Origin: a virus
DNA length: 64,000 bases
UHGV virus genome: UHGV-0038492
Direction: 5' to 3' (one strand)
Program-made: the position numbers and the translations under genes
Shown here: one piece after another, positions 5,391 to 56,887 of the stretch
Position numbering within the stretch: the first letter of the stretch is position 1
Layout: the number at the start of each line of letters is the position of its first letter
The notes under the pieces: model-generated
Database searches by the model: none
What the model was told of the DNA's origin: nothing
What the model saw: the letters and a program-made list of their open reading frames with translations, nothing else

Positions 5391-7574
5391 ATGCAGAGAT
5401 TTAACATATTTCGTGAACAGAACATCGCGTTGGCGAAATCACTGATTATTAAATCAGAATCAATCGCACAACAGATGAATCTGGCAATAACCGAGAACGG
5501 CGGTTTCGTTTCCGATAACCGAAGTACGTGGCGATACTACCTGCATTTAGCAGGACAACGTCACGAATGGGATAAGCCCATTTACATAACGTCGCTCGAC
5601 ACGCAAGAGCAGATAGAATTAACGACAGCCAACCTGTCCCGTCATAAAAAGACCTCAAACGTATTTCGTTCGAACGGCGAGTACATTGAGGAGCTGATCA
5701 GAACGTATCCTGACTACGCGATTTATATCCGGGGTGTGTTTAATCCGGTGGATATAAACTACGCCATCCGTGTGGCTGACTGCTCTATCCTCTATTACGA
5801 CAGTTCATTAGTGGAGTCGCAAGAGACGTCGCTGATGTCGAGATTGGAAGACAGAATAAGGGCAGCTCACGTTCGCTATATGTCAGAAGGGTGGAAAGTT
5901 CACAACGATGCGTTCGTGTTAGCATTCTACTGTATTCTGTATCCGCAGCTACCCGGCATTATCGGCTATATCCGTTCTTCTTTACAGCATACCACGGAAA
6001 CACATTCTTTTTACGTGACCGAGTTCTTAGCATCACACCAAGAACTTCACGAGTTTATGCCTTATCTGACCCAGAAACAGAAATTCATTCTGTATCGGAA
6101 TATTCGTTACTGGGAGCGTAATTCAGGGAAAGAGGAGATTTTCGACTGGCAGATTGATGCGCTACTGACAGGTTGGGGGATGCCTGCGGTCGGGTATAAT
6201 GTTGCGCAGCAGATACACGAACCGAAGGATGATGACGATTCCACGTTAACACCGTTACCGATTGGTTATCAGCAATCGCTTAACTATACGGAAAAGGATT
6301 CTGGTCGAGACCTTGACATTGTAACGACGACGGACATTATCCAGAAGGAAGTCGCGTTAGCGTACAATAACCCGGCGTACGAACCGGAGTATCAAGAAGA
6401 CTTAGATACCCGTTTAAGTTTAACGCAATACCCTAACCTAAAAACCAAACTCATTGAAGTTACAGCAGTCGATCCAGAAGCGATTGAGCGCTTCGAGTAT
6501 CTGCATAACCTCTTTAACGAATGGGTACATCTCGTCGCGAAAGGGAAATACAACATTTACCACGAGATTCTTAACCCAACAAACGGGGATACCTTAAAGC
6601 TTAGCTCAAAAGAGTTATTGGCGCTGTTCTTGTACGCGGCGTATAAAGGGTATTCTGACGTTGCGTTAGAAGAGATTCCTGTGTTCAACGTATTCGGGGT
6701 GTTAATCAAACGCTGGGTTCCATTCGATGAAATGGAACAACATTTAATCCCGAGCTGGGAAAACCGTTTCGATGCGTTGATTAACTATTATACCGATACG
6801 CACACAGAAGTCGTCGGAACGATTCTTAGTGCTGATGAACTTTACGACACGGTTAATGAAATCATTACCCAGAAACGCCGTCGTTGGCGTTATAGCCAAA
6901 ACCGTCGGAAGATTCCTGACCGCGCTGCGGGCTTGATGCTGTTTAACTACCATTATCGTGATTATCGTTGCGATTTAAAACTGAACTACCGTAACTACGA
7001 TGAGTTCTTTAAAACGTTTGGGTTAGACTATACGTTGGTTTCGGCGGAGACGTGGCAAGACATTGCTATTGATGCGTTTAACACCGCAACTAACCTGGAA
7101 ACCCGCGCAACGATTTCACAGTCTGAGATTCAGCGTGCGATGGTACGACTGATGACGAAGCTGTCATCCTACACCGTACATTTTGCTGCACGAATGGGGT
7201 CAGATTCTTACGACGTTATGGACCCGCTCTGTCCTATCTTAGGGGATATCCCTATGAGTGGGGAGGGGACAATTACAATTATTGAACCCCTCTTAGGCGT
7301 ACAGCAAGTTACGCGTCACCAGTATATGTCCACCGACACTGTGTTACCGGCAGCGCCTGTTATTAAAGAACTGTCGATGCCACAGCACATCAAACTCAGG
7401 ATGAACATTTACATGGGTATCCGAGTGAAAGTAACACAGCAGGTTGTGGTGGATATTAACGAGCCGACTACCGGGGTTGTTAAAGTGAAATCTTCGCTTG
7501 ACGATTGGACGTTAAACGAACAGGTGAAAATTAACGATCTGGACGGCTTCACGCTTGACCAGCTACCTAAGTGA
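5391..7574 (+). CDS. hypothetical protein
   Basis: 727-aa ORF from ATG 5391 (track start 5379 is a TTG); diverges from the 889-aa gene with no intergenic space; no Walker motif seen. Confidence 0.75.
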   Translation: MQRFNIFREQNIALAKSLIIKSESIAQQMNLAITENGGFVSDNRSTWRYYLHLAGQRHEWDKPIYITSLDTQEQIELTTANLSRHKKTSNVFRSNGEYIEELIRTYPDYAIYIRGVFNPVDINYAIRVADCSILYYDSSLVESQETSLMSRLEDRIRAAHVRYMSEGWKVHNDAFVLAFYCILYPQLPGIIGYIRSSLQHTTETHSFYVTEFLASHQELHEFMPYLTQKQKFILYRNIRYWERNSGKEEIFDWQIDALLTGWGMPAVGYNVAQQIHEPKDDDDSTLTPLPIGYQQSLNYTEKDSGRDLDIVTTTDIIQKEVALAYNNPAYEPEYQEDLDTRLSLTQYPNLKTKLIEVTAVDPEAIERFEYLHNLFNEWVHLVAKGKYNIYHEILNPTNGDTLKLSSKELLALFLYAAYKGYSDVALEEIPVFNVFGVLIKRWVPFDEMEQHLIPSWENRFDALINYYTDTHTEVVGTILSADELYDTVNEIITQKRRRWRYSQNRRKIPDRAAGLMLFNYHYRDYRCDLKLNYRNYDEFFKTFGLDYTLVSAETWQDIAIDAFNTATNLETRATISQSEIQRAMVRLMTKLSSYTVHFAARMGSDSYDVMDPLCPILGDIPMSGEGTITIIEPLLGVQQVTRHQYMSTDTVLPAAPVIKELSMPQHIKLRMNIYMGIRVKVTQQVVVDINEPTTGVVKVKSSLDDWTLNEQVKINDLDGFTLDQLPK

Positions 7575-7581
7575 GAAAACC

Positions 7582-8109
7582 ATGGCATATCGCGTCGACT
7601 TAACGAAAACTCCGAAACAAATTCTGGTAGATCGTATTAACTACGTTTTCGGGGTATCCTATACCACTGATAACATCGATTTTAACGATAAAGGTGTGCA
7701 ACCACTGACGAAAGACGAAGCCCGTCGTTACGGACTGGAATCGAAAGTGGCCGCTGACTTTAAAAACGGTGTTACAGGGAACCAGGAATTCATCTTAACC
7801 CGTGTTGACCTGGCAACGTTCTTAGCTGACGAACCGGTTACGGTACCGAAAGGCGAAGTAACCAGCAGCCAAGAACTGGCAGACTATATCGTTGCCCAGA
7901 CCGGTATTGATTTGACCCAAGACGACATTATGATCGAGCCTATCAGTGAGGAACTCGATTCTTATGATGTTCGCTTAGTCCCGAATCACTTATCTTTTAA
8001 AGGAACGATTCCGGTCGTATTTACTGACCCCACACCACGCACGTTGGCGTCTCTCGTGACGAAACTTGCGCTGGACGGGTTCCGCCCTGGAGAATTAATC
8101 AATGTCTAA
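7582..8109 (+). CDS. hypothetical protein, distant member of the fibre-associated small-protein family
   Basis: ATG at 7582; contains the motif ELADYIVAQTGIDLTQDDI resembling the xNLxPxDL motif of ORFs at 27860, 38024, 47326 and 48188. Confidence 0.6.
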   Translation: MAYRVDLTKTPKQILVDRINYVFGVSYTTDNIDFNDKGVQPLTKDEARRYGLESKVAADFKNGVTGNQEFILTRVDLATFLADEPVTVPKGEVTSSQELADYIVAQTGIDLTQDDIMIEPISEELDSYDVRLVPNHLSFKGTIPVVFTDPTPRTLASLVTKLALDGFRPGELINV

Positions 8110-27859: not shown

Positions 27860-28423
27860 GTGGCCACATCTTACGTACCTGATTTGAGTCTGACCTCAGC
27901 AGAGCTAGTGGTCGCTTTAATCAATCATGATAACGGGTTACAGCTTACACTAAACGAAATCCGTATTAGCGGAACTGTAACAAACCCATCCCCAACAACT
28001 TCGCGACGTAACACTATCACCGAAATCAGTAAAATCAGAAAACCAGATGGTGCGTCTGTTGTGGTTTACTACGACAGACTTGACGCCGATGAGGTATTAA
28101 CGTCCGAACCTATTTTGATTTCGTTAGACGGTACCGAAGCGAACATTCGTGATGTGCTTAGTGTTGTAAATGAATACTGCGGTACGAATTTACAACCTGA
28201 GGACTTACGTGCCTCAGATATTACTTCAGGTAATGATCCTATTGCTATTAACGTTGCTGACGATTCTCCTGCCTGGATGAATGCGTTTATGGTGACGTTG
28301 TTTGATAAAACCGAACGTGCGTTAGCGAACGAAGAAGATGAAATCTTCTGCATCGGTGACGATAGCGTTCTTACATTCGAGGTTACAGATGGCGACAGCA
28401 CTGAAGAAGACGAGACTCCATGA
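27860..28423 (+). CDS. fibre-associated small protein, family member 1
   Basis: GTG start after GGAGGG; homologous to ORF 38024 (PDLSLTS..., ...NLQPEDL); directly precedes a fibre gene. Confidence 0.65.
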   Translation: MATSYVPDLSLTSAELVVALINHDNGLQLTLNEIRISGTVTNPSPTTSRRNTITEISKIRKPDGASVVVYYDRLDADEVLTSEPILISLDGTEANIRDVLSVVNEYCGTNLQPEDLRASDITSGNDPIAINVADDSPAWMNAFMVTLFDKTERALANEEDEIFCIGDDSVLTFEVTDGDSTEEDETP

Positions 28424-38023: not shown

Positions 38024-38536
38024 GTGGAACAATTCACGCCAGATTTGTCGTTAACTTCACTTAACATGGTTATTTCACTGGTTAACCATGACCTCCAGCT
38101 TGACTTGCAAGAGAACGAGGTTGAAGTCAGCGACGTAAAGACCAGTAACGAAATGGATCGTGACACCACTGCTGTTGTAAAGATAAAACGTCCCGGTAAC
38201 AGAACGTTACAAATCTATTACAACCGTTTAACCGCAGAACGTTGGTTAAACCAGCAACCTATTCTGGTGCAAGTAACTGGAGAGGGGTTTAACACACACG
38301 ATTTAATCGATGCGATTAACGCAGCCTGTGGTAGTAACCTGCAACCCGAAGATCTTCAGGACGATTCATTTACAGTAGGAAAAGACGCTGTAACGTTACA
38401 GGTATCACCTAACTCCCTAAGTTATAAAGGCCAATTCTCTGTTTTGGTTTTTGGTAACGGCGAAGAGGCCGCAGTAACAAAAGATGACAACCTAATCGTT
38501 ACCGCAGATAATCGCGTCTTAACCTTTGGAGGTTAA
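38024..38536 (+). CDS. fibre-associated small protein, family member 2
   Basis: GTG start after AGGAGG; homologous to ORF 27860; precedes a fibre gene. Confidence 0.65.
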   Translation: MEQFTPDLSLTSLNMVISLVNHDLQLDLQENEVEVSDVKTSNEMDRDTTAVVKIKRPGNRTLQIYYNRLTAERWLNQQPILVQVTGEGFNTHDLIDAINAACGSNLQPEDLQDDSFTVGKDAVTLQVSPNSLSYKGQFSVLVFGNGEEAAVTKDDNLIVTADNRVLTFGG

Positions 38537-43682: not shown

Positions 43683-43711
43683 TTAACTAAACCATTTTAG
43701 GAGCATATACC

Positions 43712-44250: not shown

Positions 44251-45042
44251 ATGGCTACTTTAACTATTGCTAATACTCTTACTCCTCGTAAAATGAAACG
44301 TCTTACGACTTTTATCTCTCGCTGCACACCTAGCGTCAAATTGGAAACGACCTCTGACAAAATCACGTTTTGGACTTATAGTGACGTAGAACTTGAAACT
44401 GTGAAAGGGTTTGTTAATGGGCTAGTTGAAAATACCGCATCATCGCTCGTTATTAGCTTCACTAGCGAAAATAGCGAGATGAACGAAGCAACAATTTCGG
44501 ATGCAATCTATTACGCGACTGGCAATAATTTTGATACCGCCGACAGACTTAATCTTTCTAATAACCTTTGTAAAATCGACGACAAGACTTACATCCTATA
44601 TTTTAATAGTCCGTTCCCACAAATCGGAGGTTTTAAACATTATCTTTCAATGAAACCTATCTTGGGTATAGAAGTTTTCTCTACGGATCTTGAAGACAAT
44701 GTACAGCTAAACCGTATTCGTTATCGCGGTAAACGTCCAACCGAAACAGATTCTGAATACGGTGCTTGTGCTGAATATATTCTGGTTCATAAAGATCGCT
44801 TCGCTTACTACAACCAAGACGATATTGAACGTCTTGTAGAAGCCGTCAATTTATACACTCGTGATTTTGCATTCCGATTGGTTTATAACACTTATCCGAA
44901 TGGTGTAACGGCTTTCTATATCCCTCCCTACCTTTTCGACAAGGTTTATTGTATTCTGTCTAAAGAACTGGAAAAAATTAAACCGGTTTTCGTGGGCGAA
45001 GACGCTATGGCTTATATCAGGAGTGGTGCTAATGTCCTCTAA
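44251..45042 (+). CDS. hypothetical protein
   Basis: 263-aa ORF. Confidence 0.65.
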   Translation: MATLTIANTLTPRKMKRLTTFISRCTPSVKLETTSDKITFWTYSDVELETVKGFVNGLVENTASSLVISFTSENSEMNEATISDAIYYATGNNFDTADRLNLSNNLCKIDDKTYILYFNSPFPQIGGFKHYLSMKPILGIEVFSTDLEDNVQLNRIRYRGKRPTETDSEYGACAEYILVHKDRFAYYNQDDIERLVEAVNLYTRDFAFRLVYNTYPNGVTAFYIPPYLFDKVYCILSKELEKIKPVFVGEDAMAYIRSGANVL

Positions 45043-45463
45043 ACTTAAAGATGAATTGCGTGATTACATTCGTAAATACCCAGCCAGTATTCCGGTACTG
45101 GCTTCACTCTCTTTATCGGGTATGGACCTTAATACCTTAACGGTAGAAAAATTCCACGAAGTGGTAAAATCGTCGTATCAAATTGTTACCGATATGTCAG
45201 TGCGGAAACGTGCTGACTACCCAGACGGTGATTTCGGTACAGAGATGTTCACAGACTACGCAGTTGCGTATCTGATGGGACGTCACTTTATCGATAAGCT
45301 CAATACAGCTGTAGAAGGAGAAACCGTTACGGAAATTGTCAATGCTTGGCAACAACGTATTGTGAGTGACGCTTACTGTCGTCAAGCCTTAAAGAAAATG
45401 TCGGCGGTAGCATTAACCAACGACCAACGTGCTTTAGAGTTCCTTAAGCACAATTACGAATAA
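45032..45463 (+). CDS. hypothetical protein, paralog A
   Basis: GGAG RBS; paralogous to ORF 46727 (shared N-terminal L-K-D-x-(L/I)-R-(D/N)-Y-I-R-K/N motif). Confidence 0.6.
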   Translation: MSSKLKDELRDYIRKYPASIPVLASLSLSGMDLNTLTVEKFHEVVKSSYQIVTDMSVRKRADYPDGDFGTEMFTDYAVAYLMGRHFIDKLNTAVEGETVTEIVNAWQQRIVSDAYCRQALKKMSAVALTNDQRALEFLKHNYE

Positions 45464-45484
45464 TTTACCAAAAGGAAAAGTACC

Positions 45485-46657
45485 ATGTTTAATATTGAGA
45501 TTACACCGCTCGTTAAAACTGAAATCCGTCCGGTTCCTGAAGCACAGTTACTCGATCAACTTTATCGTATATTCCTGGATAAAGGTGTGCATTTCCGTGT
45601 AGAACAGGTCAATGACGAAAGCATCGTGTTCTACTGGACTCACAGCAACGATTATCTTTGCGATACTATCGCGAAAGAAATTGGTGAGTTGCTCAACCCA
45701 GCAGCCACGAACGCCAAGGTAGAAACGACCGAGACTGAACAACCGAAAGTCGAAGAACAGCAGTGGCCTGAAACCAGCGCCGACAACCCGCTCGTCTATC
45801 GGTATGGTGCCGAAACGAATGAGAAAATTAAAGAAACATTAGAGGCTCTCTATCCTGATTATTTAACCATCAGTCAACAATGCGACGTGTTAGTTATCTG
45901 GATGAATGATTTCGAACCCAAGCTCATTAAAGCTATTCGCATCACCGTTGCACTGATCGTCAAAGACGCCGTTCGCCTTATTTCGTTTGAAGGTATCGGT
46001 CGACGTGACGCGGATGATTTCATGCGTGATGTCGTTCACGAACACAAGGAGAAAATTCTTCGGTCTAATTATGTTGGTGACACTCTAATTGTGCTTGTTG
46101 ATAATGATCCCGTTATTATTAATCAGCTGAACATCCGTATGCGTAAGTTAACAAAGAAAATTTTTCTTAAAGGGGAGCAATCGCTTGAAGAGTCCAAAGT
46201 GTCTAAAGTCTTTACTTACACTGGTCCAGATGCCAAAGCGATTAACGATACTTTGGCAGCTTTCTATTCTAGCAAAGTAGAGACTAAACTCGAGGGCGAA
46301 GAACTCACCATTAAATGGAAATGGTGGGACATTGCTCTTGAAGAAGAAATTCATAGTCTTATTAAAGAGATTGTTGACAATCGTCTACGTCTTCTAACAA
46401 TCACTACTATCGGTGGAGAAGATGCCGATGCGTTTATAAGCGGGGTTCTTCGCGCGTATCCTGAGAAAGTCCGTCAATGGACTTACAATGACGATACACT
46501 TATCATCCTGCTCAACTATGAACCTGGCCTTATTGGGAAATTGAAGGATCGTCTACGCGATCTGTGGTACAAACGATTTCTTAAGGATGGGTCGAAAGAG
46601 CTCATTAAACGATTGTTTTCTGATTGCAACTGTCCTATATGTCAGAAGCATCGCTAA
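45485..46657 (+). CDS. hypothetical protein
   Basis: 390-aa ORF; C-terminal CNCPICQKH. Confidence 0.65.
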   Translation: MFNIEITPLVKTEIRPVPEAQLLDQLYRIFLDKGVHFRVEQVNDESIVFYWTHSNDYLCDTIAKEIGELLNPAATNAKVETTETEQPKVEEQQWPETSADNPLVYRYGAETNEKIKETLEALYPDYLTISQQCDVLVIWMNDFEPKLIKAIRITVALIVKDAVRLISFEGIGRRDADDFMRDVVHEHKEKILRSNYVGDTLIVLVDNDPVIINQLNIRMRKLTKKIFLKGEQSLEESKVSKVFTYTGPDAKAINDTLAAFYSSKVETKLEGEELTIKWKWWDIALEEEIHSLIKEIVDNRLRLLTITTIGGEDADAFISGVLRAYPEKVRQWTYNDDTLIILLNYEPGLIGKLKDRLRDLWYKRFLKDGSKELIKRLFSDCNCPICQKHR

Positions 46658-46674
46658 TTAACTAAATTCGTACA

Positions 46675-46710
46675 AGGGGTGGTTTACCACCCCTCTATTA
46701 TTGTATTTAC
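46675..46710 (+). terminator. intrinsic terminator (weak T tract)
   Basis: AGGGGTGG-TTTA-CCACCCCT. Confidence 0.5.
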
Positions 46711-46726
46711 CTAAAGGAGTATTAAA

Positions 46727-47158
46727 ATGTTTTTCGTATTAAAAGATGATATTCGTAACTACATTCGTAACAATCCGATTGCTCTAGGCGTTTTAGCAGG
46801 TTTCTGTCGTCCAAATACTGACTTCGATTTAGTTAAGTTAGAAGAATATCAAGAAATTGTGAATACTACCTACCTGCACATCTGTAGCTGGGGTAAACGT
46901 CCTCGTGAAGAGTACCCTGTGGGTGAGTTAGGTGACACCATGCACCGTGACCAGAATCTGATGCACGAATTCGTTGAATACACACTGGAAAATCTTAACT
47001 ATCCGCTCCTGGTCGACACTGTACCAGAAATGGTTGACGAATGGTTAAAACGTGTTTATAGCGATCCTACCGCCAACAAGTTACTGAGCCAGATGTCACA
47101 AACTTCTCGTGACATCGACACTCGTACGCTGATGTACTTAGCACATAATGTTCGCTAA
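46727..47158 (+). CDS. hypothetical protein, paralog B
   Basis: AAAGGAG RBS; paralog of ORF 45032; terminator downstream. Confidence 0.6.
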   Translation: MFFVLKDDIRNYIRNNPIALGVLAGFCRPNTDFDLVKLEEYQEIVNTTYLHICSWGKRPREEYPVGELGDTMHRDQNLMHEFVEYTLENLNYPLLVDTVPEMVDEWLKRVYSDPTANKLLSQMSQTSRDIDTRTLMYLAHNVR

Positions 47159-47165
47159 CCTCTTT

Positions 47166-47220
47166 CCGCTATAGGCTTCGGTCTATAGCGGAATTAATTT
47201 TCTTCCCCTTTTCTTTTTTT
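47166..47220 (+). terminator. intrinsic terminator
   Basis: CCGCTATAG...CTATAGCGG hairpin then T-rich tract. Confidence 0.6.
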
Positions 47221-47325
47221 GTTATTTTGACACCACTTTACTTACACCCTACCCGACTATTCCTATGCTGGCTGAGGGATGTAAAACGACCTCTTAAACC
47301 TTTTTACTTACTGTGAGTTAACGCG

Positions 47326-48174
47326 ATGTCTCTTACGTCAAAACAGAAACTGCTAAAACTCATCAACACTGAAAACAATATTATTCCACCGTTGACTTTC
47401 AGTGATGTTGAAATCGGGGAACCTACCGGTACTGGGGTTGATACCCAGGTGGTTCTGACCTCTAAACTTAAAGGCGATGAGTCTACTACTTTAACAGTGA
47501 CTTACCACCGTCGTAACTTACCTGACTACCTAACCGGTGAGTTGGTATTCGGTAACGACAGTGTGGTAACCGCATCAGATTTGCTTAATGCGATTAACGC
47601 AAAATACAACCTAAATATTTTACCCTCGGATATCGTTGACGCAAAAGTTGAAGGCGAAACCCATCAGCTTACCGCTAACGAGAAATCTTACGAGTGGTGC
47701 GGTGTAGTAACGCTTACGCTGCGCGATCCTATTGACCTGACTGAACTGTTACCGGTTACTCAATTAGAGAATCTGGTAGAGTATCCGTCCACGAAGAAAG
47801 GTAACGCGGCGGTTTATTCTCACCCGATTGATTTCACCGCAGAAAAAGATTACCTTGACCCGATTACTATCAACGACGCTGTAGACTTGGTAGAATTAGC
47901 TACTAAACTGGATAGCGTCGTTGACGAGAAATGGGTAAGCGTACCTAAGAACGCGGCTAACAACCTGTACGGAGCGAAGATTATTTACGATGGTCCAACC
48001 GCAGGTTACGAAGGCGCAAATACGAAGTTCACTCGTGTGTTGGTGCTAACACTCAGCCCGCTGTGTTCTAACCTGACCGGTAACCTGTTAATTCACTTTA
48101 ACGGGACCGATCGTCCGAAGTCGAAGATTGAATTAGCACAGACTAATCCGGTCTTACCGGGATTCTTAGATTAA
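47326..48174 (+). CDS. hypothetical protein, fibre-associated small-protein family (extended)
   Basis: 282 aa; contains SDLLNAINAKYNLNILPSDI matching the family motif. Confidence 0.65.
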   Translation: MSLTSKQKLLKLINTENNIIPPLTFSDVEIGEPTGTGVDTQVVLTSKLKGDESTTLTVTYHRRNLPDYLTGELVFGNDSVVTASDLLNAINAKYNLNILPSDIVDAKVEGETHQLTANEKSYEWCGVVTLTLRDPIDLTELLPVTQLENLVEYPSTKKGNAAVYSHPIDFTAEKDYLDPITINDAVDLVELATKLDSVVDEKWVSVPKNAANNLYGAKIIYDGPTAGYEGANTKFTRVLVLTLSPLCSNLTGNLLIHFNGTDRPKSKIELAQTNPVLPGFLD

Positions 48175-48187
48175 GAGGATTACAGTA

Positions 48188-48667
48188 ATGGCCAATCAAG
48201 AAACTATCTTCGACCTTATTAAAAAGGCTAACCCGGACGCTGAGTTCGACACCACCAAAGTCACACTGGGTGAACCGGTTGTGACCACCGGTACTTACAA
48301 TACCGAAATTACGGTTGCGTCGATTAAGAATCTCGGTTATGTTAATAAGCAAACGTTCCAGTATAACCGCATTGACGCAGGTTTGTATTTCCTGAACGTA
48401 TTACCGAAATTGTTGGTAGAATCTGCAACGACTACCGCTGACTTACTGCCCGTCATTAACGAGCAGTACAGCCTAACCCTTACAGAAGACGACGTGTGGG
48501 TAGAACAGGTTGGTGAGTTACCGTTAGACGGTAGCGCAATCGAACACGGTATTTTCTTCCGTCCTGAGTGTCTGACCTGGGTTGGTGGTTTTACAGTGCG
48601 TGTTGCGCGTAAACCGGCTGACGCCACACCGCCAAAGACGGCGTCTCGCGCTAAAAAGAAAAAATAA
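48188..48667 (+). CDS. hypothetical protein, same family
   Basis: 159 aa; ADLLPVINEQYSLTLTEDDV motif; Lys-rich C-terminus; terminator downstream. Confidence 0.6.
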   Translation: MANQETIFDLIKKANPDAEFDTTKVTLGEPVVTTGTYNTEITVASIKNLGYVNKQTFQYNRIDAGLYFLNVLPKLLVESATTTADLLPVINEQYSLTLTEDDVWVEQVGELPLDGSAIEHGIFFRPECLTWVGGFTVRVARKPADATPPKTASRAKKKK

Positions 48668-48671
48668 TCAC

Positions 48672-48706
48672 AGGGTGGGGTAATCCCCACCCTCTTTTCT
48701 TTTTTG
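48672..48706 (+). terminator. intrinsic terminator
   Basis: AGGGTGGGG-TAAT-CCCCACCCT then T-run. Confidence 0.75.
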
Positions 48707-48729
48707 TGTAAAATAGGAGTTAAACGAAA

Positions 48730-49320
48730 ATGGCCGAACGTTGGACTAAAGAAGGTATTATTGAATCCAAAACCGATTTGGAAGGTGGGTACGTCAACGA
48801 CCCTGACGACAAAGGTGGAGAAACCTGTCACGGGGTAACACTGACAACTGCACGCGAATACGGGTACAAAGGAAGAATGAAAGATCTGACCCGTGCGCAA
48901 GCGTTTGACATTTACGATCGTGGTTGGTGGAAGAAACTTAAACTCGATGAGATTTTCGCTATCTCGCCGATACTCGCCGACCGGATGTTTGATTTTGCTA
49001 TTAACTCTGGCCGTGTTAACTGTGTGAAGTCATTACAACGTATTCTCAACGTTTTAAATAACGAAGGGAAACTTTACGCAGATATTGACACCGACGGTGG
49101 TATGGGACCTAAAACACTAGGTGCTCTGAATGCTTATCTAAATTACCGTAAAGGCGAGGGATTAGGCATCTTAATCTTTGCGTTAATCTCACACCAGGTA
49201 ACCTACTACACGGAAATCTCCGAAAAGCGTAAGAAGAATGAAAAATTCGCTTACGGCTGGTACGGACGTGTGTACAGGGAAATGCCGGATTATGTAGTGA
49301 AGGCGGGGTTAGTAAAATGA
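48730..49320 (+). CDS. endolysin-like peptidoglycan hydrolase (GH108-type N-acetylmuramidase)
   Basis: N-terminal EGGYVNDPDDKGGETCHGVT matches the conserved GH108 signature (EGGYxNDPxDxGGxTxxG). Confidence 0.7.
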   Translation: MAERWTKEGIIESKTDLEGGYVNDPDDKGGETCHGVTLTTAREYGYKGRMKDLTRAQAFDIYDRGWWKKLKLDEIFAISPILADRMFDFAINSGRVNCVKSLQRILNVLNNEGKLYADIDTDGGMGPKTLGALNAYLNYRKGEGLGILIFALISHQVTYYTEISEKRKKNEKFAYGWYGRVYREMPDYVVKAGLVK

Positions 49321-49421
49321 ATTGGTTTGCTAAACTCTTAGCGTTATTGTGGAAAGCGTTAACGTCTGGTCGAAAACGTAAAGACGAAAAACGTGGGCAA
49401 GAATTCTTCTGGTTTTTGTAA
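49317..49421 (+). CDS. 34-aa amphipathic peptide (possible lysis accessory)
   Basis: ATGA overlap with endolysin stop; MNWFAKLLALLWKALTSGRKRKDEKRGQEFFWFL; too short for the ORF track. Confidence 0.3.
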   Translation: MNWFAKLLALLWKALTSGRKRKDEKRGQEFFWFL

Positions 49422-49436
49422 GGAAAGGTGTGGGTA

Positions 49437-50102
49437 ATGGAAAAGCTTCAATATAAACGTTTAGATGATAAGTGGTTTGTATTAACGGAGGATTACCATT
49501 ATCCGTTTACGTTACGTGAGATTTATCACGACCACGTACACTTAGACCGTGCGGTTTATTTAACCGGTGTATTACCTGACACGCAACTGTGGTTAACCGC
49601 TCCGAAAGGGTTCGTAACGGACTTAGCGTCGATACCCGAACACTTACAGGGAATTTTCCATCCTGACGGGCCTTGGGCACCGGCTGCGTGTATTCACGAC
49701 TTGTTATACCAGAAATGCAGTACGGAACGTAGCTACCCTATGACGCCCGGTGGAAACGTTTCTCGCATTATCGATAAAGAGTTCGCTGACTTAACGTTTC
49801 TGCGTATTATGCAGTCGTTAGAAATCTCACCGTATATCTGCCAAACGTTTTATAAAGCCGTTGTAGGATTCGGTTGGGATGCTTACGTAGACCCTAACGC
49901 GAAACCGTCTTATACCACTAACGACTACCGTACGTTAGATTACAATCGAAACTATTTGTTCGTTCGCGAGTTTAAGGAGCCTGCTATTCCTGACCACGAA
50001 CGAGTTGATATCACCACAGGTTGTCCCGTTAATGTCAAATACCTGAACATTAAACGGGCTTTTCTGTCTGGGAGGGAAGATGTTTCATCCAAATCCGAGT
50101 AA
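49437..50102 (+). CDS. hypothetical protein (DUF1353-like, tentative)
   Basis: AAGGAAAGG RBS before ATG 49437; segment GFVTDLASIP resembles DUF1353-type phage proteins. Confidence 0.55.
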   Translation: MEKLQYKRLDDKWFVLTEDYHYPFTLREIYHDHVHLDRAVYLTGVLPDTQLWLTAPKGFVTDLASIPEHLQGIFHPDGPWAPAACIHDLLYQKCSTERSYPMTPGGNVSRIIDKEFADLTFLRIMQSLEISPYICQTFYKAVVGFGWDAYVDPNAKPSYTTNDYRTLDYNRNYLFVREFKEPAIPDHERVDITTGCPVNVKYLNIKRAFLSGREDVSSKSE

Positions 50103-50595
50103 CTTTAAAATCAAAGAGTTAGTACCGCAATCGTACATCACCAAATACGGTGATTCTGCAATTCGGTTTATGAACCCGCTGTTAATGATTTCGCTACAGC
50201 AGATTCGTAACCGTTTCGGCAGAATGGTAATTAACTCGTCTGCTGCGCAACAACGTGGTTTAAGAACCTTAGACTTTTTCATCAACCAAGAAAAGCCTAA
50301 GGGTGGTAACTATAAACAACGTGCTTTACAACTCTATTCCGATTCAGGAAGTCAGCACAAGTTCGGTAACGCGTTCGACGCAACATTGTTAGATTCAACG
50401 GTAAAACAAGTCCACGATTACATCGCCGCCAATCCTGATGAGTTTCCGTTTATTCACTTTATTGAATGCGACATCAGTTGGTTACATATCGATGTTCGTA
50501 ACCAACCGAATATCACGTTCTGGTCACCGAATCGGGGTACTGTGAAAGTCGCGAAACAAAGCCCTATCGATTGGAGCGCCTTAGTTAAAATCTAA
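50080..50595 (+). CDS. peptidase M15-like (LAS-type zinc peptidoglycan peptidase)
   Basis: SQHKFGNAFD fits the SxHxxGxAxD zinc-binding motif and a later WLHID provides the second His. Confidence 0.5.
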   Translation: MFHPNPSNFKIKELVPQSYITKYGDSAIRFMNPLLMISLQQIRNRFGRMVINSSAAQQRGLRTLDFFINQEKPKGGNYKQRALQLYSDSGSQHKFGNAFDATLLDSTVKQVHDYIAANPDEFPFIHFIECDISWLHIDVRNQPNITFWSPNRGTVKVAKQSPIDWSALVKI

Positions 50596-50679
50596 GCGCA
50601 TATTCCTTAACTTAGGGTGATTGTACCTTATTTTGTATAAACCGTCTTAGAACGCGTTCTAGCGCGCTCTACGGACAAA

Positions 50680-50718
50680 ATAAACCTACCCTCCTGCTTA
50701 GCAGGAGGGTATTTATTA
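50680..50718. terminator. bidirectional terminator between convergent genes
   Basis: ACCCTCCTGC-TTA-GCAGGAGGGT flanked by A-rich and T-rich tracts. Confidence 0.7.
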
Positions 50719-51195
50719 TTCTACCGGGTGCAGCATAGTGCCGGTATCTGGAATGCTGCCTTCGTGACATCTGAAGAACGTTACACCTTTACCTTCACCT
50801 GTTTTGTAGTTGATGGTAGAATACGCAAACGTTGGGGTTTTCGACAGTAACCCGTTTACACGGTAATAGCGCTCACCGGTAACAACGTTTAAGTTACCGT
50901 CCACTTTACCTAACAGGTCTTTATAAAGTTGCGGAGATTCAATTTTACCTTCGTCCCATGTAGCGACCCAATTCGCTCCTGTATCCATGACTAACACCGA
51001 AAGGGGCATCAGTTTTAGGCTAGACGGTACCGGTTTAAAATCAGCGAATTCTTGAGAAGCACCTGTACAGGTGTAAATGACCATATCGTGTTGGTCAACA
51101 GGTACGGTGGAGAACTGACCTTCTGCGTTCGGCTGAATAGCACAACTTGCCAATGTCATTACAAAAGCAACGACCACGAGAATGCGTTTTAGCAT
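50716..51195 (-). CDS. lipoprotein (signal peptide with lipobox LASC)
   Basis: AAGGATGAG RBS before ATG at 51195; MLKRILVVVAFVMTLASC; lone minus-strand gene between two plus-strand blocks with terminators on both sides. Confidence 0.65.
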   Translation of the reverse strand: MLKRILVVVAFVMTLASCAIQPNAEGQFSTVPVDQHDMVIYTCTGASQEFADFKPVPSSLKLMPLSVLVMDTGANWVATWDEGKIESPQLYKDLLGKVDGNLNVVTGERYYRVNGLLSKTPTFAYSTINYKTGEGKGVTFFRCHEGSIPDTGTMLHPVE

Positions 51196-51334
51196 AATCT
51201 CATCCTTATTAAAATTAAGAAAAATTAATTTTTTCAGGTTAGCGCTTACTGCCAACCGTCATATCTATATTTTAGGAAATGTCTAAAATAACATTCTTAT
51301 GCAATCCACCCCTGCCACTTACGAGGTAAAAACG

Positions 51335-51871
51335 ATGGCTAAAGCCTTCAAACAGCAGCTCATCGAAGCTGTAATTGCTAAAAACTCAGAAACCGCTTCT
51401 AATCTGACGGTTGCTGATGTTGATTTTGGCGCTGTTGCTGAGTTCAGCGGAGACGCTGGCCGCAACACTAAAATTACCCTGACCGCCAAGGCAGAAAGCC
51501 AGAACTTCAAAGGCGAGAAAGAATTCCACTACATTCGTCTGGCTTCTCAAGACCTGATCGGTGCTAAAGCTTACGAACAAGCCGGTAGCCTCGATCTGGA
51601 AAACTCTGCCATTGTAACCAAACTGAACGAAGAAATGGTTACTAAAGGTTATGTCGATGACGAGTTTGCAGAGAGCGAACTGTCCATTGAGAAATCCGAA
51701 GGCGACAGCGGTGCTAAAGTTTACACTGTCAAAGTAAGCGAAGGTCACATCAAATTCCTGGCTGGTACCATTGCCACCTTCACTTATTCCAACCCAGCTC
51801 CTGAGAAGGTAGCACTGAGCGGTCTGGAAGGTGAACTTGATGGCTTCACTGCGCCGGGTGTCGGTGGCTAA
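51335..51871 (+). CDS. hypothetical protein, paralog 1 (C-terminal GELDGFTA motif)
   Basis: GAGGT RBS before ATG 51335; host-like high-expression codon choice; paralogous to ORF 51943. Confidence 0.65.
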   Translation: MAKAFKQQLIEAVIAKNSETASNLTVADVDFGAVAEFSGDAGRNTKITLTAKAESQNFKGEKEFHYIRLASQDLIGAKAYEQAGSLDLENSAIVTKLNEEMVTKGYVDDEFAESELSIEKSEGDSGAKVYTVKVSEGHIKFLAGTIATFTYSNPAPEKVALSGLEGELDGFTAPGVGG

Positions 51872-51883
51872 GTAAGTTAAATC

Positions 51884-51904
51884 GGGGGGGGGGTGACCTC
51901 CCCC
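51884..51904 (+). other. G10...C5 homopolymer hairpin between the GELDGFTA paralogs
   Basis: ATCGGGGGGGGGG TGACCT CCCCCGAT about 40 nt before ATG 51943. Confidence 0.6.
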
Positions 51905-51942
51905 GATATTTCTTTAACTCGTATTATTAAGGACCTAAGATA

Positions 51943-52473
51943 ATGGCCGCTACTAACCAGATGATGTTGGTCGCGCTTTATAATGCTGCTAACACTGAGC
52001 TACCGCATCAGATTACAGATAAAGAAGTGTCCTTTGGTTTGCCTGCTGCGCTGGAAGGCGAAGGTAAGAATACCAAAGTTACCATGACCGCACTACCGGG
52101 TTCTGAGAATTTCAAAGGCGAAATCGAACTGCATTACGATCGTCTGGAGCCAGGTGTTGTAGGACGGATTGAACTAACTGACGATCTGTCTCGCTGGGTT
52201 CAAGAAAATGAACTCCGTGCTTGGTTACAGTATTACATCAACAAAGTAAAACCTGACGACGCTATCGCACCAGGCGACGTTGTGTACAACACCGAAGACC
52301 AGAAAGACGAACATGAAAACGTCACTCTGCGTACCGTGACGTGCACCGTTACTGAAAAGAACCTCCGTTATAAACCAGGTGTAATGGCAACTTTCGTAAT
52401 TACACCGAAGGTTGTCGATAATCGTATTGACCTGGCCACCACCAACGGTGAGTTGGACGGCTTTACTGCTTAA
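51943..52473 (+). CDS. hypothetical protein, paralog 2 (C-terminal GELDGFTA motif)
   Basis: AAGGA RBS; shares TK(I/V)T(L/M)TA...ENFKGE and the C-terminal motif with ORF 51335. Confidence 0.65.
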   Translation: MAATNQMMLVALYNAANTELPHQITDKEVSFGLPAALEGEGKNTKVTMTALPGSENFKGEIELHYDRLEPGVVGRIELTDDLSRWVQENELRAWLQYYINKVKPDDAIAPGDVVYNTEDQKDEHENVTLRTVTCTVTEKNLRYKPGVMATFVITPKVVDNRIDLATTNGELDGFTA

Positions 52474-52510
52474 TCGCTAAGTCAACTACTATAACAAAAA
52501 ATAATAAGTT

Positions 52511-52546
52511 TACCTACCTCCGTAAAGGAGGTAGGTATTTTTTTTT
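52511..52546. terminator. bidirectional terminator between convergent genes
   Basis: TACCTACCTCC-GTAAA-GGAGGTAGGTA flanked by an A-run and T9. Confidence 0.75.
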
Positions 52547-52554
52547 GCCGCTAA

Positions 52555-53226
52555 TTACAGCCCTTGCTCTAATGCAAACGCTTTAATTGAATCGTAATCA
52601 CGGGCTTCGGCCCAAGCTCTGACTTCTTTTTTCTGTTCCGTCATTGCCTGATGCAGTTGCTGGTCGCGTTGCACAATAGCACCCAGCAGTGTTTTGCACT
52701 GCTCTAACGTAAACGGTTCGATACGGGTGTTGTTGGCCGTTAACCAATACGCTGGCGCGGTTTCTGACTGAATATAACGACTCAGTGCTACCTGTGACTT
52801 CTCATCTGCCTGGAAAGTGAAATCACCCACTTGAATCTCGGCATACCGCGCATCCTGATAACGGAATTCCAATGCGCTTAGGATTTTCTGAACATCGGTA
52901 AAGATATACCGCACAGTGGAGCGTAAACCCGTACGAATCTCTTCCAGGTCAATTCCCAACGTGTCGTTAACAAAGTCTTTCGCTTTCTGTAACGTAAATC
53001 GTGCTTCGATTTCAGACATGTCGTAGTTACGCATTTGTTCCAATGCTTCACGATCGGACATCCCATCAATCAATTTATAGTGCAGTAACGCACAAAAACC
53101 CGTACGACCATGATCTTCGCTACCGATTTTTTCCATATAGTTACCATGGCGGTCAATCGGTAAATCGTGCTCAAAATAACGACGACGGATTTCTTCTTTC
53201 GTTAAGCCTTCACCAGTAGCAGACAT
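52555..53226 (-). CDS. hypothetical protein, last gene of the fibre/radical-SAM operon
   Basis: 223-aa ORF overlapping the upstream gene by 25 nt; terminator downstream. Confidence 0.6.
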   Translation of the reverse strand: MSATGEGLTKEEIRRRYFEHDLPIDRHGNYMEKIGSEDHGRTGFCALLHYKLIDGMSDREALEQMRNYDMSEIEARFTLQKAKDFVNDTLGIDLEEIRTGLRSTVRYIFTDVQKILSALEFRYQDARYAEIQVGDFTFQADEKSQVALSRYIQSETAPAYWLTANNTRIEPFTLEQCKTLLGAIVQRDQQLHQAMTEQKKEVRAWAEARDYDSIKAFALEQGL

Positions 53227-53774
53227 TCATCGTCTCCTTTAATCAATCCTAATTCGATTAACAGTTCAAAATCGATATGACGGAATCTTGTATCAAAATC
53301 CGATTCCCAATCGATGCGGATACCCTGGCACTCTTCTGATGTTAGCTCGGGAAAAATTACGGTATTAAATTTCTCACGCTCATCGTAAAACCCATCAATC
53401 GGTGAGTTCGGGTTACGCGTTGCGAAAATAGTAATACCAGGGAAAGATAATGCTAACACAGTGATAGATTCTGCGCTGGGCTCACTTAAAGAGCGGCGTA
53501 GAAACGCAATTTTGTGGCGTGGGAAGTCCAATACGCGTTCTTCAAACCCTGGATTACGTTTTTCGATTTCCGCTACCGACAGGTCAGTAAGTTCGGTGCA
53601 ATACATTGGGATGATTACAGTCACGCCGTGGCGAATCAGTAAACGTTTTACGTCATCGGTAAAATCTTCGCCGTTAATCATCACGTAACAACCGAACAGC
53701 TTACTGTTTTCCAGAAACTTATCCAGAAGTCGAATTCTACGCTTCGTAATATTGTTGATCAGAATTGGTTTCAT
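53202..53774 (-). CDS. hypothetical protein co-operonic with radical-SAM enzymes
   Basis: 190-aa ORF overlapping both neighbours. Confidence 0.6.
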   Translation of the reverse strand: MKPILINNITKRRIRLLDKFLENSKLFGCYVMINGEDFTDDVKRLLIRHGVTVIIPMYCTELTDLSVAEIEKRNPGFEERVLDFPRHKIAFLRRSLSEPSAESITVLALSFPGITIFATRNPNSPIDGFYDEREKFNTVIFPELTSEECQGIRIDWESDFDTRFRHIDFELLIELGLIKGDDECLLLVKA

Positions 53775-55059
53775 CTTTGGCTTCTCTTAATAATTTTTCC
53801 TTTTGGGCGCGTTCACGAACACAGCGTGGGCAATAACACATACTCGTGTCGTGGAACGCTTTTGCTGACGTCGTACCCATCTTCTGTTTCCAGTATTCCG
53901 CCACCATCAGTTTCGCTGTCGTCCACCCGCACTGACGTCGCTCAGCGTGATACGCTTTACGGTCTTCCAGTGTCCCTTCACCGTTTTCGTAAGAAGCCGC
54001 AGCGCAGCTACCACAAGCGTGTTTCATCGGACAACCTAAGCACGTCTCTGGATAGTTGGTATATTGTGTTTGAATCTCTTCTAACAATTTACCGTTGTCC
54101 AGGCTGACGAATTCCCGACCTACCAACTCAAATACCGCAGAACGTGATGTTACGGTTGACATAAAGCGATTGCAACCGAAGATCTTACGGTCAAAACCTA
54201 AACACGTCATGTGTGTTAATGTCCCACAGAACGGACGTAAACGTTCTGGGTTCAACCGCACCGTGTCATTATAAAGTAATTGATCACGCCAGTTCGGTTC
54301 CCAAATCGTATCGAAATCCAACCCTTCTGGGATGATGTGCGATAAGATATTACGTGGGTTGGTGTGTAATCCTTTCTCGACCCAATAATCAATCACATCC
54401 ATCATCTGCAATGCAATTGAAGTAGCCATCCCACGTGGCATAATGTCTTCGAAGGTTACGTTGCCGGAGATAGTTCCGCCACCAGTAATATCAATTAATG
54501 ACTTCATTCCGGCAGCATAGTACGGTAACGTTTCTAACGTAAAGGTCGCCTTTACGCCAAGCTCTGCAATGCCAACCTCTTTTAAGTAGTTATAGCCTCG
54601 TACTGCGGCTTCGTAAGAACCCTGGCGCGTCGTTGTAAAGATACGATAACGGTCATGGGACTCAGGTAAGCCGTCAATTGAAACCCCAACCGAAAGTTTG
54701 TCTTTCCAACGCTCTACGATCTCACGGTTCAACGGGCGATCTAACAACGTCCCGTTTGTGGAAATACTAAACATAAACGGCCGATTATGTTCTTTACACA
54801 ACTGCTCGGCGGTTTCAAATGCAGCCAGCAGCAACTTAGGCTGCATGAACGGTTCACCACCGATAATGTCAATAATAACTTCAACATTCGGTTCGTTTTT
54901 ATCGCGTTCAAAACAGGCGTGCAAGAAATCAACAATATCTGCCGCTTTGTTGTTACGCGGGTACTTACGTTCGTAACAATATTCGCAGTCCAGGTTACAC
55001 GAAAGGTTCGTTACAATCTGATACGTTAGCTGCTTAGGGAATTCATTTACCTGACTCAT
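53737..55059 (-). CDS. radical SAM enzyme with C-terminal SPASM-like Cys cluster (anSME/peptide-maturase-like)
   Basis: N-terminal CNLDCEYC (CxxxCxxC), GGEPFM SAM-binding motif, and C-terminal cysteines (CLGCPMKHACGSC...CYCPRC) typical of auxiliary Fe-S clusters. Confidence 0.75.
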   Translation of the reverse strand: MSQVNEFPKQLTYQIVTNLSCNLDCEYCYERKYPRNNKAADIVDFLHACFERDKNEPNVEVIIDIIGGEPFMQPKLLLAAFETAEQLCKEHNRPFMFSISTNGTLLDRPLNREIVERWKDKLSVGVSIDGLPESHDRYRIFTTTRQGSYEAAVRGYNYLKEVGIAELGVKATFTLETLPYYAAGMKSLIDITGGGTISGNVTFEDIMPRGMATSIALQMMDVIDYWVEKGLHTNPRNILSHIIPEGLDFDTIWEPNWRDQLLYNDTVRLNPERLRPFCGTLTHMTCLGFDRKIFGCNRFMSTVTSRSAVFELVGREFVSLDNGKLLEEIQTQYTNYPETCLGCPMKHACGSCAAASYENGEGTLEDRKAYHAERRQCGWTTAKLMVAEYWKQKMGTTSAKAFHDTSMCYCPRCVRERAQKEKLLREAKDETNSDQQYYEA

Positions 55060-55966
55060 TTGCCGCCCCTCTATTACGACCTGCCATCACTACGCGACGA
55101 ATATATTCGTACGCCTCTACACCGATAGAGAAGGCCAGTTGGTTACACCCGGATTCCAGTACGTTAGGTGCGTTCTGGAGCTGGTGCTCACCACCGTCTG
55201 CATTAATCCAGAGACTTTCGCTGCAAACGTTACACCCTTCTTCAAACACTTTACTTACCGTAAAACCACATTCACGACTGTTTACTACATTCAGTCGTTC
55301 AATGTTGTCCTGAACCCGATAGTAGCCGTAAATAAAGTTCATGACGTGGTCAGGTGATAAAGGCTTTGGCATTTTCGCATCTAAGAGTAACGTCATTGCT
55401 CGGAAACCGTAATGGTAAATCGCGCTGTGCAGCTGAATAATATCTTCATGCCAACGTTTATCCCCCAAACGGTCCCGTGTCAAGACACCCCAAGTCTGGA
55501 CATTATCCAGCTCGTAGATCGTTTCCAGTGCTTCGTAACAGCCTTCGTCAATAAAGCGCATAAATGGACGCTCAGACGACTTAAACCCATCGATGCTAAC
55601 GTAGACATTGTCAAACTGTTTTAGCAACGGGAGATGCGATTTACGCATCTTTAAGCCATTGGTATACAACTGGTGTTTGAGTTCTGGACGAATCACTTTT
55701 AATTCGTCAACAAACGCCTCAATTTTACGGGTTGCCAATAGTGGCTCACCACCCGTCCACTGAATTTCGGTAATGGTTGGATTAGCTTCCAGCGCTTCCA
55801 AAATTCGCTCACGTTGAAACTCTCGCGGAGAATCTTCACGATTCATGTAATAGGCTCCACCGCAGAAGCTACAATCCAGGTTACACTTGGACGTAGCGAC
55901 TACGGACAATACGGTGGGTTTATCGTATAAACGATTCGATAACCTTGGTTCTGCATTGGTTGTCAT
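55043..55966 (-). CDS. radical SAM enzyme, paralog of the 440-aa enzyme
   Basis: CNLDCSFC and GGEPLL motifs; C-terminal Cys pairs (CGFTVSKVFEEGCNVC...GC); overlaps downstream gene by 17 nt. Confidence 0.75.
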   Translation of the reverse strand: MTTNAEPRLSNRLYDKPTVLSVVATSKCNLDCSFCGGAYYMNREDSPREFQRERILEALEANPTITEIQWTGGEPLLATRKIEAFVDELKVIRPELKHQLYTNGLKMRKSHLPLLKQFDNVYVSIDGFKSSERPFMRFIDEGCYEALETIYELDNVQTWGVLTRDRLGDKRWHEDIIQLHSAIYHYGFRAMTLLLDAKMPKPLSPDHVMNFIYGYYRVQDNIERLNVVNSRECGFTVSKVFEEGCNVCSESLWINADGGEHQLQNAPNVLESGCNQLAFSIGVEAYEYIRRVVMAGRNRGAANESGK

Positions 55967-55987
55967 TGCAGGTGACTCCGGTCGTTT

Positions 55988-56887
55988 TTAAATATAATCA
56001 ATGGCGAACAAAGGATCGTCGTCTACGTTAGCACCAGGGGTTAACAAGAATGGAGAGTTATACGCTTCCAAAATACGGTTAAGGTCTTTATAACGGACAT
56101 TTAAACGTTCTAAATCCGCTAACGTTACGTTACGGTCCAACACCGCCGACACTGCTGCTTTCTCTTCGTCAGTTAACGTGACTTTCGTCATTAAGAAACT
56201 AACGAGTTTTGCCAGATCCGCTTCTGTTGACGGATGCTCGCCGATACGCGTTTGAATCAAATGCTGCATCCATGGTTTACGGATGCGTTTTGTGATCTCA
56301 TGTTCATCCGTTAGGGCAACCCACACGGAACGTTCACGATCCCACACGAACTTATAGCTATACGCCATTAAATCCGCTAAACAATTAATCCCTAAGGCTT
56401 CGTACCCTTCAATTTCAATATACGATTCCGTATCGAAATAGTTCTTCGTTTCTGGTGTTACCAGGGTAAAGAAATACGGGAACGAGCCCAAGTAATCTGG
56501 TGACCACCAACGACGGGCAACCGGTTTTGCACCCATTTCTTCAAACGGGGTAAAGAACAATTCCATATCCACGGAGTTATTCAAAATCCCATCACTAAAG
56601 AAATATTTACCTGCAACCAATTTACCACGCAACTCAGAGTCACCGGTAAATACCACTACACTTTCTGCCGTCAGATCACGAATCTTAAACGTATTTTCTA
56701 CACGATAGTTTTTACGATCGGTAAAGAAACGTCCGCGCACTTTAGGCCATTCGCCTGGCAATTGCGTCAGCAGACGAACTTCATCTGCTAAGTGTGCACG
56801 TACGGAATCAGGGGAAGAAATGTGAAGTGGATGATTGAAAATCGTTTTGTACGCTAAATGTAAATCATTCTTCATTGATTGCTCCAA
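55988..56887 (-). CDS. hypothetical protein between Cys-rich proteins and radical-SAM enzymes
   Basis: 299-aa ORF; no motif recognised. Confidence 0.6.
   Translation of the reverse strand: MEQSMKNDLHLAYKTIFNHPLHISSPDSVRAHLADEVRLLTQLPGEWPKVRGRFFTDRKNYRVENTFKIRDLTAESVVVFTGDSELRGKLVAGKYFFSDGILNNSVDMELFFTPFEEMGAKPVARRWWSPDYLGSFPYFFTLVTPETKNYFDTESYIEIEGYEALGINCLADLMAYSYKFVWDRERSVWVALTDEHEITKRIRKPWMQHLIQTRIGEHPSTEADLAKLVSFLMTKVTLTDEEKAAVSAVLDRNVTLADLERLNVRYKDLNRILEAYNSPFLLTPGANVDDDPLFAIDYI

Follow-up and report, generated by a model that had tools for sequence, protein, structure and literature searches.

Few components of chimallivirus virions are as abundant as the proteins of the DUF7941 family. 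A role was not put forward for them until 2026, and where they sit is a matter of dispute (a cloud of filaments at the baseplate versus the head). In SPN3US, gp160 is among the top four of the particle's non-capsid proteins by abundance, with an SC/M value of 9.46 that lies above that of the tail sheath (Ali et al. 2017, PMC5694885); it is estimated at >300 copies, is unprocessed and belongs to a 20-member paralog family, family B (PMC5694885). For Goslar, the preprint that names the family DUF7941 gives ~2140 copies per virion for gp23 and ~580 for gp22, reports that purified gp22 forms filaments, which its authors place at the baseplate, and presents AF3 head-to-tail dimers in which the segment after the DUF7941 N-domain binds the N-domain of the next protomer (bioRxiv 10.64898/2026.04.21.720040). 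The only resolved member, phiKZ gp127 (PDB 9xqd), is a 290-aa protein with a C-terminal domain; it occurs once per lobe of the baseplate star, its place in the outer baseplate being the end of the gp139 band (Nat Commun 2026, PMC13250141). Here we describe two adjacent genes of this family, open reading frames (ORFs) A and B, in a 64,000-nucleotide stretch of the UHGV virus genome UHGV-0038492 (the window; coordinates are given in Table 1).

A and B are most likely structural proteins that an SPN3US-like (chimallivirus-type) jumbo phage of Salmonella/E. coli expresses late and at a very high level. We lean towards a reading in which they are filament subunits of the Goslar gp23 type, anchored on the virion and polymerising head to tail through a C-terminal GELDGF tail, with A as the major and B as the minor subunit. 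The family, its abundance and the polymer idea have already been published (2017, 2026), and the pair is a new example, not a new system. What is added here is that the C-terminal motif is defined as common to much of the family and is present both in the linkers that join the domains of fused relatives and, in this clade, on the wedge and gp127-like proteins; that a conserved terminator-like element lies between gene pairs that appear to have been duplicated independently; and that the codon bias is quantified.

Gene calling returned the pair as two co-directional ORFs on the + strand, both at the coordinates of the preliminary description. An alternative start of ORF A at ATG 51299, taken from a mechanical ORF list, was rejected: a 1-nt indel in two of the related loci (L009 and L010) puts this upstream ATG out of frame, and the start was therefore set at ATG 51335. 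The two products had been presented as tandem paralogs with a shared TK(I/V)T(L/M)TA block, and this was borne out, as they align end to end with 31% identity (BLASTP, E 8e-20), the block TK(I/V)T(L/M)TA..(Q/E)NFKGE..HY.RL falling within the alignment; by this measure they are true paralogs. Relatives were compared at the level of the locus, for which six related loci (L005-L010) were fetched, and an A-type and a B-type gene were found in tandem in all six.

As a family assignment, the Pfam DUF7941 profile (PF25613) scored 31.9 bits for A and 37.3 bits for B against a gathering cutoff of 27; these matches span only profile positions 7-82, i.e. the first ~80 residues. PHROG 4862 matched both over their full length (E 7.5e-42 for A and 5.9e-34 for B). 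A phmmer search of the window ORFs with A or B alone retrieved only the pair itself, and profiles were needed to go further; a profile search of 1.84 billion representatives gave only 188 proteins at E <= 1e-3. By tblastn, full-length relatives at ~46% identity were found in 62 jumbo phages (Seoulvirus/SPN3US, Erskinevirus, CR5 and Proteus phage 7), the orthologs of SPN3US gp160 matching A with 46% identity over 93% of its length. SPN3US gp160 itself is 46% identical to A and 37% to B, and shares with the pair not only the TTNGELDGF tail but also its neighbourhood: a GH108 endolysin, a DUF1353 protein and a small divergent ORF, then the convergent DUF4376 gene and two radical-SAM genes. The gene order agrees with that of both SPN3US and Erskinevirus. 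Identity and position together identify A as the ortholog of SPN3US gp160 and place the pair in DUF7941, the SPN3US paralog family B. SPN3US carries a single copy where this clade has a tandem pair. As B is nearer to SPN3US gp160 (37%) than to gp177 of Erwinia phage Stratton (28%), the tandem duplication in this clade and that in Erskinevirus look independent.

The SPN3US paper lists family B as 'gps83, 138-154, 161 and 237', and its Table 1 and text give gp160 as the abundant family-B member (PMC5694885); the '161' is probably a misprint for 160, since SPN3US_0161 is a DUF4376 protein.

Goslar gp23, at 180 aa, also consists of only an N-domain and a tail; it aligns with ORF A over the full length (27% identity, E 1e-8), its tail ..ADGFVKPTV included. 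The Goslar gp22/gp23 genes likewise form an adjacent paralog pair with an endolysin gene nearby, and their very high copy number in the virion is known. The Goslar pair, however, is divergently transcribed and gp22 has an extra C-terminal domain, whereas A and B are co-directional, consist of the N-domain type only and have a terminator-like hairpin between them.

AlphaFold2 monomer models, built on a 48-sequence alignment, were confident and showed single-domain alpha/beta proteins, with a predicted local distance difference test score (pLDDT) of 93.8 for A and 92.2 for B and a predicted template modelling score of 0.81 and 0.79, respectively. As far as about residue 152, the two models run through the same elements in the same order: first a helix, then five or six strands split between two hairpin-containing halves, then a long helix. 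The C-terminal tail has no regular secondary structure, at a pLDDT of ~91 in A (up to residue 170) and 84-86 in B. Each of A and B is thus modelled as one globular domain of the DUF7941 N-terminal type (approximately residues 1-152) plus a short tail ending in GELDGF, and in both proteins this N-terminal domain has the fold of phiKZ gp127 (PDB 9xqd). A Foldseek search of the PDB with the model gave no match. Against BFVD, 52 matches were obtained at E <= 1e-3, and every named one comes from a jumbo phage; they include proteins annotated as virion structural, tail and tail-fibre, several of them being the N-termini of long tail or tail-fibre proteins. Relative to phiKZ gp127, A and B are short, bear a tail and would by homology be present in hundreds of copies per particle.

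The preliminary description had considered the pair as abundant virion proteins, either decoration or scaffold. Abundance is supported through the relatives, by the copy numbers of SPN3US gp160 and Goslar gp23 given above, and the two specific roles fared less well. Scaffolding or assembly proteins, abundant in infected cells and removed from the mature virion, could also have high codon adaptation and a position among morphogenesis genes, as A and B do, but orthologs of the pair are abundant and unprocessed in purified mature virions, and the predicted fold is compact alpha/beta, not an extended helix or coiled coil; we regard this explanation as highly improbable. Capsid decoration did not hold up either: the only solved relative lies in the phiKZ outer baseplate, and neither likeness in fold or sequence to the decoration proteins of the T4 Soc/Hoc and lambda gpD types nor ordered binding to a capsid lattice was found.

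To quantify the high-expression enterobacterial codon usage that had been noted for the two genes, weights for the codon adaptation index (CAI) were derived anew from a set of 30 genes of E. coli K-12 (locus L004) that encode ribosomal proteins, RpoA and elongation factors; they correlate with the Sharp-Li table at r = 0.98 on log weights. ORF A has a CAI of 0.580, the highest of the 75 window ORFs (z 3.6 relative to these), and ORF B one of 0.431, ranking third (z 1.8), compared to medians of 0.584 for the E. coli reference genes and 0.29 for the window ORFs. When synonymous codons were resampled from the window's own usage, the observed values corresponded to z 8.2 for A and z 4.0 for B, and none of 5000 resamples attained either of them. 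The E. coli-type codon bias is thus very strong in A and moderate in B, as had been proposed. The same order was seen in the relatives, A exceeding B in five of six loci (0.51-0.56 versus 0.34-0.47) and equalling it in L008 (0.44), and in Erwinia phage Stratton (0.46 for gp176 versus 0.26 for gp177).

The peptide GELDGFTA, described earlier as an identical C-terminal motif of both proteins, is indeed identical in the two (nt 51830-51853 in A and 52447-52470 in B), but it forms the exact C-terminus of B only; in A it is followed by PGVGG. In the alignment of A, B and gp160, L161, L168 and F171 are invariant and G166, E167 and G170 nearly so, despite the ~30% identity between A and B. The tail is one of two conserved patches in this group, the other being the beta-hairpin at residues 44-69 (RNTKITLTA...NFKGE..HY.RL). 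Across the family, [LIVMA]-x-G-F was found within the last 32 residues of 40 of the 84 short representatives among the 188 profile matches, and many of the others have x-G-L (LDGLT, LNGLT); a tail motif [LMV]-x-G-[FL] is common to much of DUF7941. In some 20 representatives, two or three DUF7941 N-domains are fused in tandem at a spacing of 160-180 aa, which is the length of A and B, and in most of these the motif (LAGF, MDGF, LDGF, LPGF, LTGF, LNGL and others) lies in the linker, ~15-25 residues before the next domain. We take this as 'Rosetta-stone' evidence that the domains are built to align head to tail with the motif at the junction. The earlier suggestion of a docking or sorting signal is therefore upheld in spirit for docking, by these linkers and by the docking segment in the Goslar AF3 dimers; nothing was found pointing to sorting. 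Cleavage by a prohead protease at G-E|L (the S/A/G-X-E rule) was considered and rejected: the residues before L168 are E-G-E in A and those before the equivalent L are N-G-E in B and gp160, neither of which begins with S, A or G as a phiKZ-type site would. gp160 is also not among the eight processed head proteins of SPN3US (PMC5694885).

The window holds seven DUF7941 modules, namely A, B and those starting at 7555, 27860, 38024, 47326 and 48188, in keeping with a family that phiKZ-like/chimallivirus jumbo phages encode, as a rule with several paralogs in each genome. The gp127-like protein at 47326 has an added C-terminal tail, ..IELAQTNPVLPGFLD (LPGF), and positions 146-171 of the A/B profile align to its residues 256-281. 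The region of the baseplate-wedge gene and the 7555 module has the gene order of phiKZ gp128-gp127-gp126. The wedge protein is not a DUF7941 member, yet carries the tail motif at its own C-terminus; the C-terminal [LM]DGF is kept in the Seoulvirus, Erskinevirus and Machinavirus homologs (SPFM16, phiEaH2 and Caitlin), whereas gp128 of the phiKZ type lacks it. The occurrence of the same peptide on otherwise unrelated proteins suggests that it is a portable docking element acting in trans. The wedge protein may be an anchor for DUF7941 subunits, and the peptide it shares with them suggests a place at which filaments could be nucleated; the differing C-terminal ends of the five further paralogs may represent docking classes or chain terminators. 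A run of ORFs of 150-230 aa at 8-28 kb was also considered as a counterpart of the SPN3US family-B array and rejected, as 17 of them scanned with Pfam gave no DUF7941 match; only the ORF at 27860-28423 was recognised later, by a broader local hidden Markov model (HMM).

The transcriptional anatomy of the unit was examined as well. The 71-nt spacer between A and B contains ATC-G10-TGACCT-C5-GAT and then ATTTCTTT. Its G10 run (51884-51893) lies inside ATCGGGGGGGGGGTGACCTCCCCCGAT (51881-51907), for which a terminator scan returned 11 pairs, eight of them G-C, and a loop of 5, so that the G10 hairpin first noted here is confirmed; the hairpin and its T-rich tail are retained in all six related loci. 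Eleven pairs followed by ATTTCTTT make a conserved intrinsic-terminator pattern, but one with an interrupted U-tract, and the 76-nt fold has an energy of -27.2 kcal/mol (z -1.97 relative to shuffled sequences). In Erwinia phage Stratton a canonical terminator of unrelated sequence occupies the same position between gp176 and gp177. The G-run, of 10 in the window, is 9, 10 or 12 long in L005-L010, where extra Gs would fall in the loop; these differences may reflect either a homopolymer that truly varies within the loop or errors of assembly. The terminator after B is much stronger than the A-B hairpin, is common to the convergent genes and is kept in the relatives and in SPN3US.

Upstream of A, the + strand showed no sigma-70-like promoter, as expected if the phage uses its own RNA polymerases. 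The sole shared feature of phiKZ late promoters is T(-3)ATG(+1), overlapping the start site (PMC7598289). A TATG is present upstream of A as a candidate start, TATGCA at this site is retained in all six relatives, and L009 and L010 differ from the window upstream of it, not downstream; the A-B spacer contains no TATG. The arrangement would be that of one late promoter before A, followed by A, a leaky terminator, B and a tight terminator, which would leave A in excess over B.

In the mechanism that we favour, the tail of one subunit would dock onto the globular domain of the next, with the beta-hairpin 44-69, as the other conserved patch, being the likely acceptor. The outcome would be flexible head-to-tail filaments attached to the virion, with A as the major subunit and B as a minor, co-polymerising one. 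How much B is made would depend on how often the G10 hairpin terminator is read through from the single late promoter, and on the weaker codon adaptation of B. Candidate anchoring points are the proteins that bear the same or a related tail motif: the gp128-like wedge, the gp127-like and the gp83-like proteins. In chaperone-usher pili, a comparable principle operates as donor-strand or tail exchange, a short terminal peptide binding or completing the next globular domain to give linear polymers with specialised terminal subunits. The likeness is in principle only, as A and B have no relationship in sequence or fold to the pilus proteins and neither a chaperone nor an usher is present. As a test case for the head-to-tail model the locus is clean and minimal: each of its two subunits has a single domain, the C-terminal peptide is sharply conserved, and F171 or residues 166-171 provide a precise mutable target. 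We suggest that the annotation of both genes be changed from 'hypothetical' to 'DUF7941 virion filament protein (SPN3US gp160-like)'.

Several points weigh against this mechanism. The A-B hairpin has a weak U-tract and a folding energy only about two standard deviations from that of shuffled sequences (z -2). The Goslar model is a preprint, and filaments were reported only for gp22, whose extra C-terminal domain A and B lack. The confident placement of the tail in a monomer model would be expected just as much if the tail folded back on the domain of its own subunit. If so, it could be an intramolecular stabiliser, A and B being monomeric accessory or adaptor proteins of the baseplate or fibres whose expression reflects stoichiometry; the motif seen in multi-domain relatives could then equally be the last element of each domain. 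However, the hundreds to thousands of copies per virion found for relatives are hard to seat on fixed sites, and no ordered density has been reported; the evidence for a portable peptide acting in trans and the filaments made by purified Goslar gp22 also argue against it, and we consider this alternative improbable.

The main contradiction concerns location, as filaments anchored at the baseplate conflict with the head assignment made for SPN3US. Family B, including gp160 at its estimated >300 copies per capsid, was found in a tailless SPN3US mutant from which the fibre/baseplate proteins gp168-170 are absent (PMC5694885), and for this reason the SPN3US authors assigned gp160 to the head, with the label 'Head ejection?' in their Table 1. 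On such a view A and B would be head-associated, either as external fibres attached to the capsid or neck or as internal or ejected head proteins, and the peptide would dock to a component of the head. Conversely, phiKZ gp127, the only solved member, is in the outer baseplate, and a DUF7941 protein is assigned to the capsid in neither the phiKZ atlas nor the Goslar model. Known internal proteins are cleaved by the prohead protease and gp160 is not, and the domain heads tail-fibre-like proteins both in BFVD and in Goslar. We consider a head location unlikely. The head and baseplate data could be brought into agreement if self-assembling filaments co-purified with tailless heads, or if the neck or capsid held extra anchors. 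A literature search for micrographs of 'hairy' SPN3US-like phages gave nothing usable.

A broader and more speculative scenario, which we think doubtful as a whole, is that the tails form a 'plug-and-socket' assembly code of a filament apparatus. LDGF-type tails are found on A, B, the gp83-like protein and the wedge, LPGF on the gp127-like protein and VLTF-type tails on two paralogs. Proteins that donate only a tail, such as the wedge, would nucleate filaments; the class of tail would decide which DUF7941 domain binds where; members without the tail, such as that at 48188 with its poly-lysine end, would cap the chains; and the terminator-attenuator would fix the ratio of major to minor subunit. 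If true, one small domain family would build micron-scale heterogeneous appendages, and, given additional anchors on the neck or capsid, the head and baseplate observations could both be accommodated.

Table 1. Coordinates of the A-B unit, its signals and the related modules in the window
Feature	Coordinates	Strand	Remarks
ORF A	51335..51871	+	178 aa; single-domain DUF7941, SPN3US gp160 ortholog, Goslar gp23-type; proposed major filament subunit
ORF B	51943..52473	+	176 aa; DUF7941 paralog of A; proposed minor subunit
C-terminal tail of A, L161-A173	51815..51853	+	Core GELDGFTA; proposed as the peptide donated in head-to-tail docking
Ribosome-binding site GAGG of ORF A	51323..51326	+	Read in the sequence, 8 nt before ATG 51335; kept in relatives
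TATG, candidate late-promoter/transcription-start motif of the A-B unit	51298..51301	+	Weak 4-nt motif
G10 hairpin and T-rich tail between A and B	51881..51917	+	Terminator-like; proposed attenuator
Strong bidirectional terminator closing the A-B unit	52511..52546	.	11-pair stem TACCTACCTCC/GGAGGTAGGTA, then T9
Baseplate-wedge protein, phiKZ gp128 / SPN3US gp82 homolog	5391..7574	+	727 aa; PDB 9xqs_C PHIKZ128 E 2.9e-81; ends ..INDLDGFTLDQLPK
DUF7941 paralog at the SPN3US gp83 position	7555..8109	+	Tail ..LALDGFRPGELINV (LDGF); Pfam E 6.6e-14; directly after the wedge gene
DUF7941 paralog	27860..28423	+	187 aa; tail ..SVLTFEV..; local family HMM E 1.3e-22 (not a seed); just before the fibre genes
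DUF7941 paralog	38024..38536	+	170 aa; tail ..NRVLTFGG; Pfam E 2.8e-16
Full-length DUF7941 protein, phiKZ gp127 homolog	47326..48174	+	282 aa; Pfam E 1.4e-51, whole profile; PDB 9xqd_0 PHIKZ127 E 2.5e-5
DUF7941 N-domain-only paralog	48188..48667	+	159 aa; Pfam E 4.7e-28; lysine-rich tail without the LDGF motif

Among the proteins matched by the family profile, P0153 (2709 aa, 22 profile-matched stretches) was considered as a giant fused array and dropped; with its ~78-aa repeats and additional NWDTS-type repeats it reads as a Mollicutes-type repeat surface protein, and was therefore excluded from the argument on fused relatives. Residues 6-64 of ORF A gave a weak match to Pfam Spiralin (E 0.0047), and several short family members match the A/B profile twice, ~80 aa apart. 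These observations hint that the DUF7941 N-domain may be an internal duplication of a hairpin unit that also occurs in Mollicutes surface proteins.

The lineage of the window has no close isolated relative. Megablast of the locus against isolated phages gave no match, and with a 16-kb query (40000-56000) the best phage match, SPN3US-like, reached only ~73% identity over 14% of the query, over the radical-SAM genes. With the same query, a 221,873-bp record that bears the label of a plasmid of the human E. coli strain 98232 (NZ_CP173450.1) showed 89% identity over 83% of the query, and homologs of A and B with 58-96% identity occur on many contigs of 219-227 kb in assemblies of Salmonella, E. 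coli and Shigella isolates. The plasmid label and the isolate contigs suggest a jumbo phage that is carried extrachromosomally, possibly in a carrier state, by pseudolysogeny or as a phage-plasmid.

Divergent from A, the ORF at 50716-51195 (- strand) begins with MLKRILVVVAFVMTLASC, which by eye resembles the signal peptide of a lipoprotein, lipobox included; the ORF matches PHROG 9559 (function unknown) with E 9.1e-70, corresponds in position to SPN3US gp159 and has the GH108 endolysin gene (48730-49320) nearby. Convergent with the A-B unit, the DUF4376 protein at 52555-53226 precedes two adjacent ORFs at 53737-55966 (- strand), which lie in a structural region; in SPN3US and Erskinevirus the counterparts of these two carry a radical-SAM annotation. 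Further upstream, 28851-37865 contains host-recognition genes of the T-even style within this phiKZ-like jumbo phage: a fibre of 1519 aa (31938-36497) that carries a Phage_fiber_2 repeat and a Peptidase_S74 chaperone domain, a complete gp38 adhesin (36545-37336) and another ORF in which the Gp38_N domain alone is present (37353-37865).

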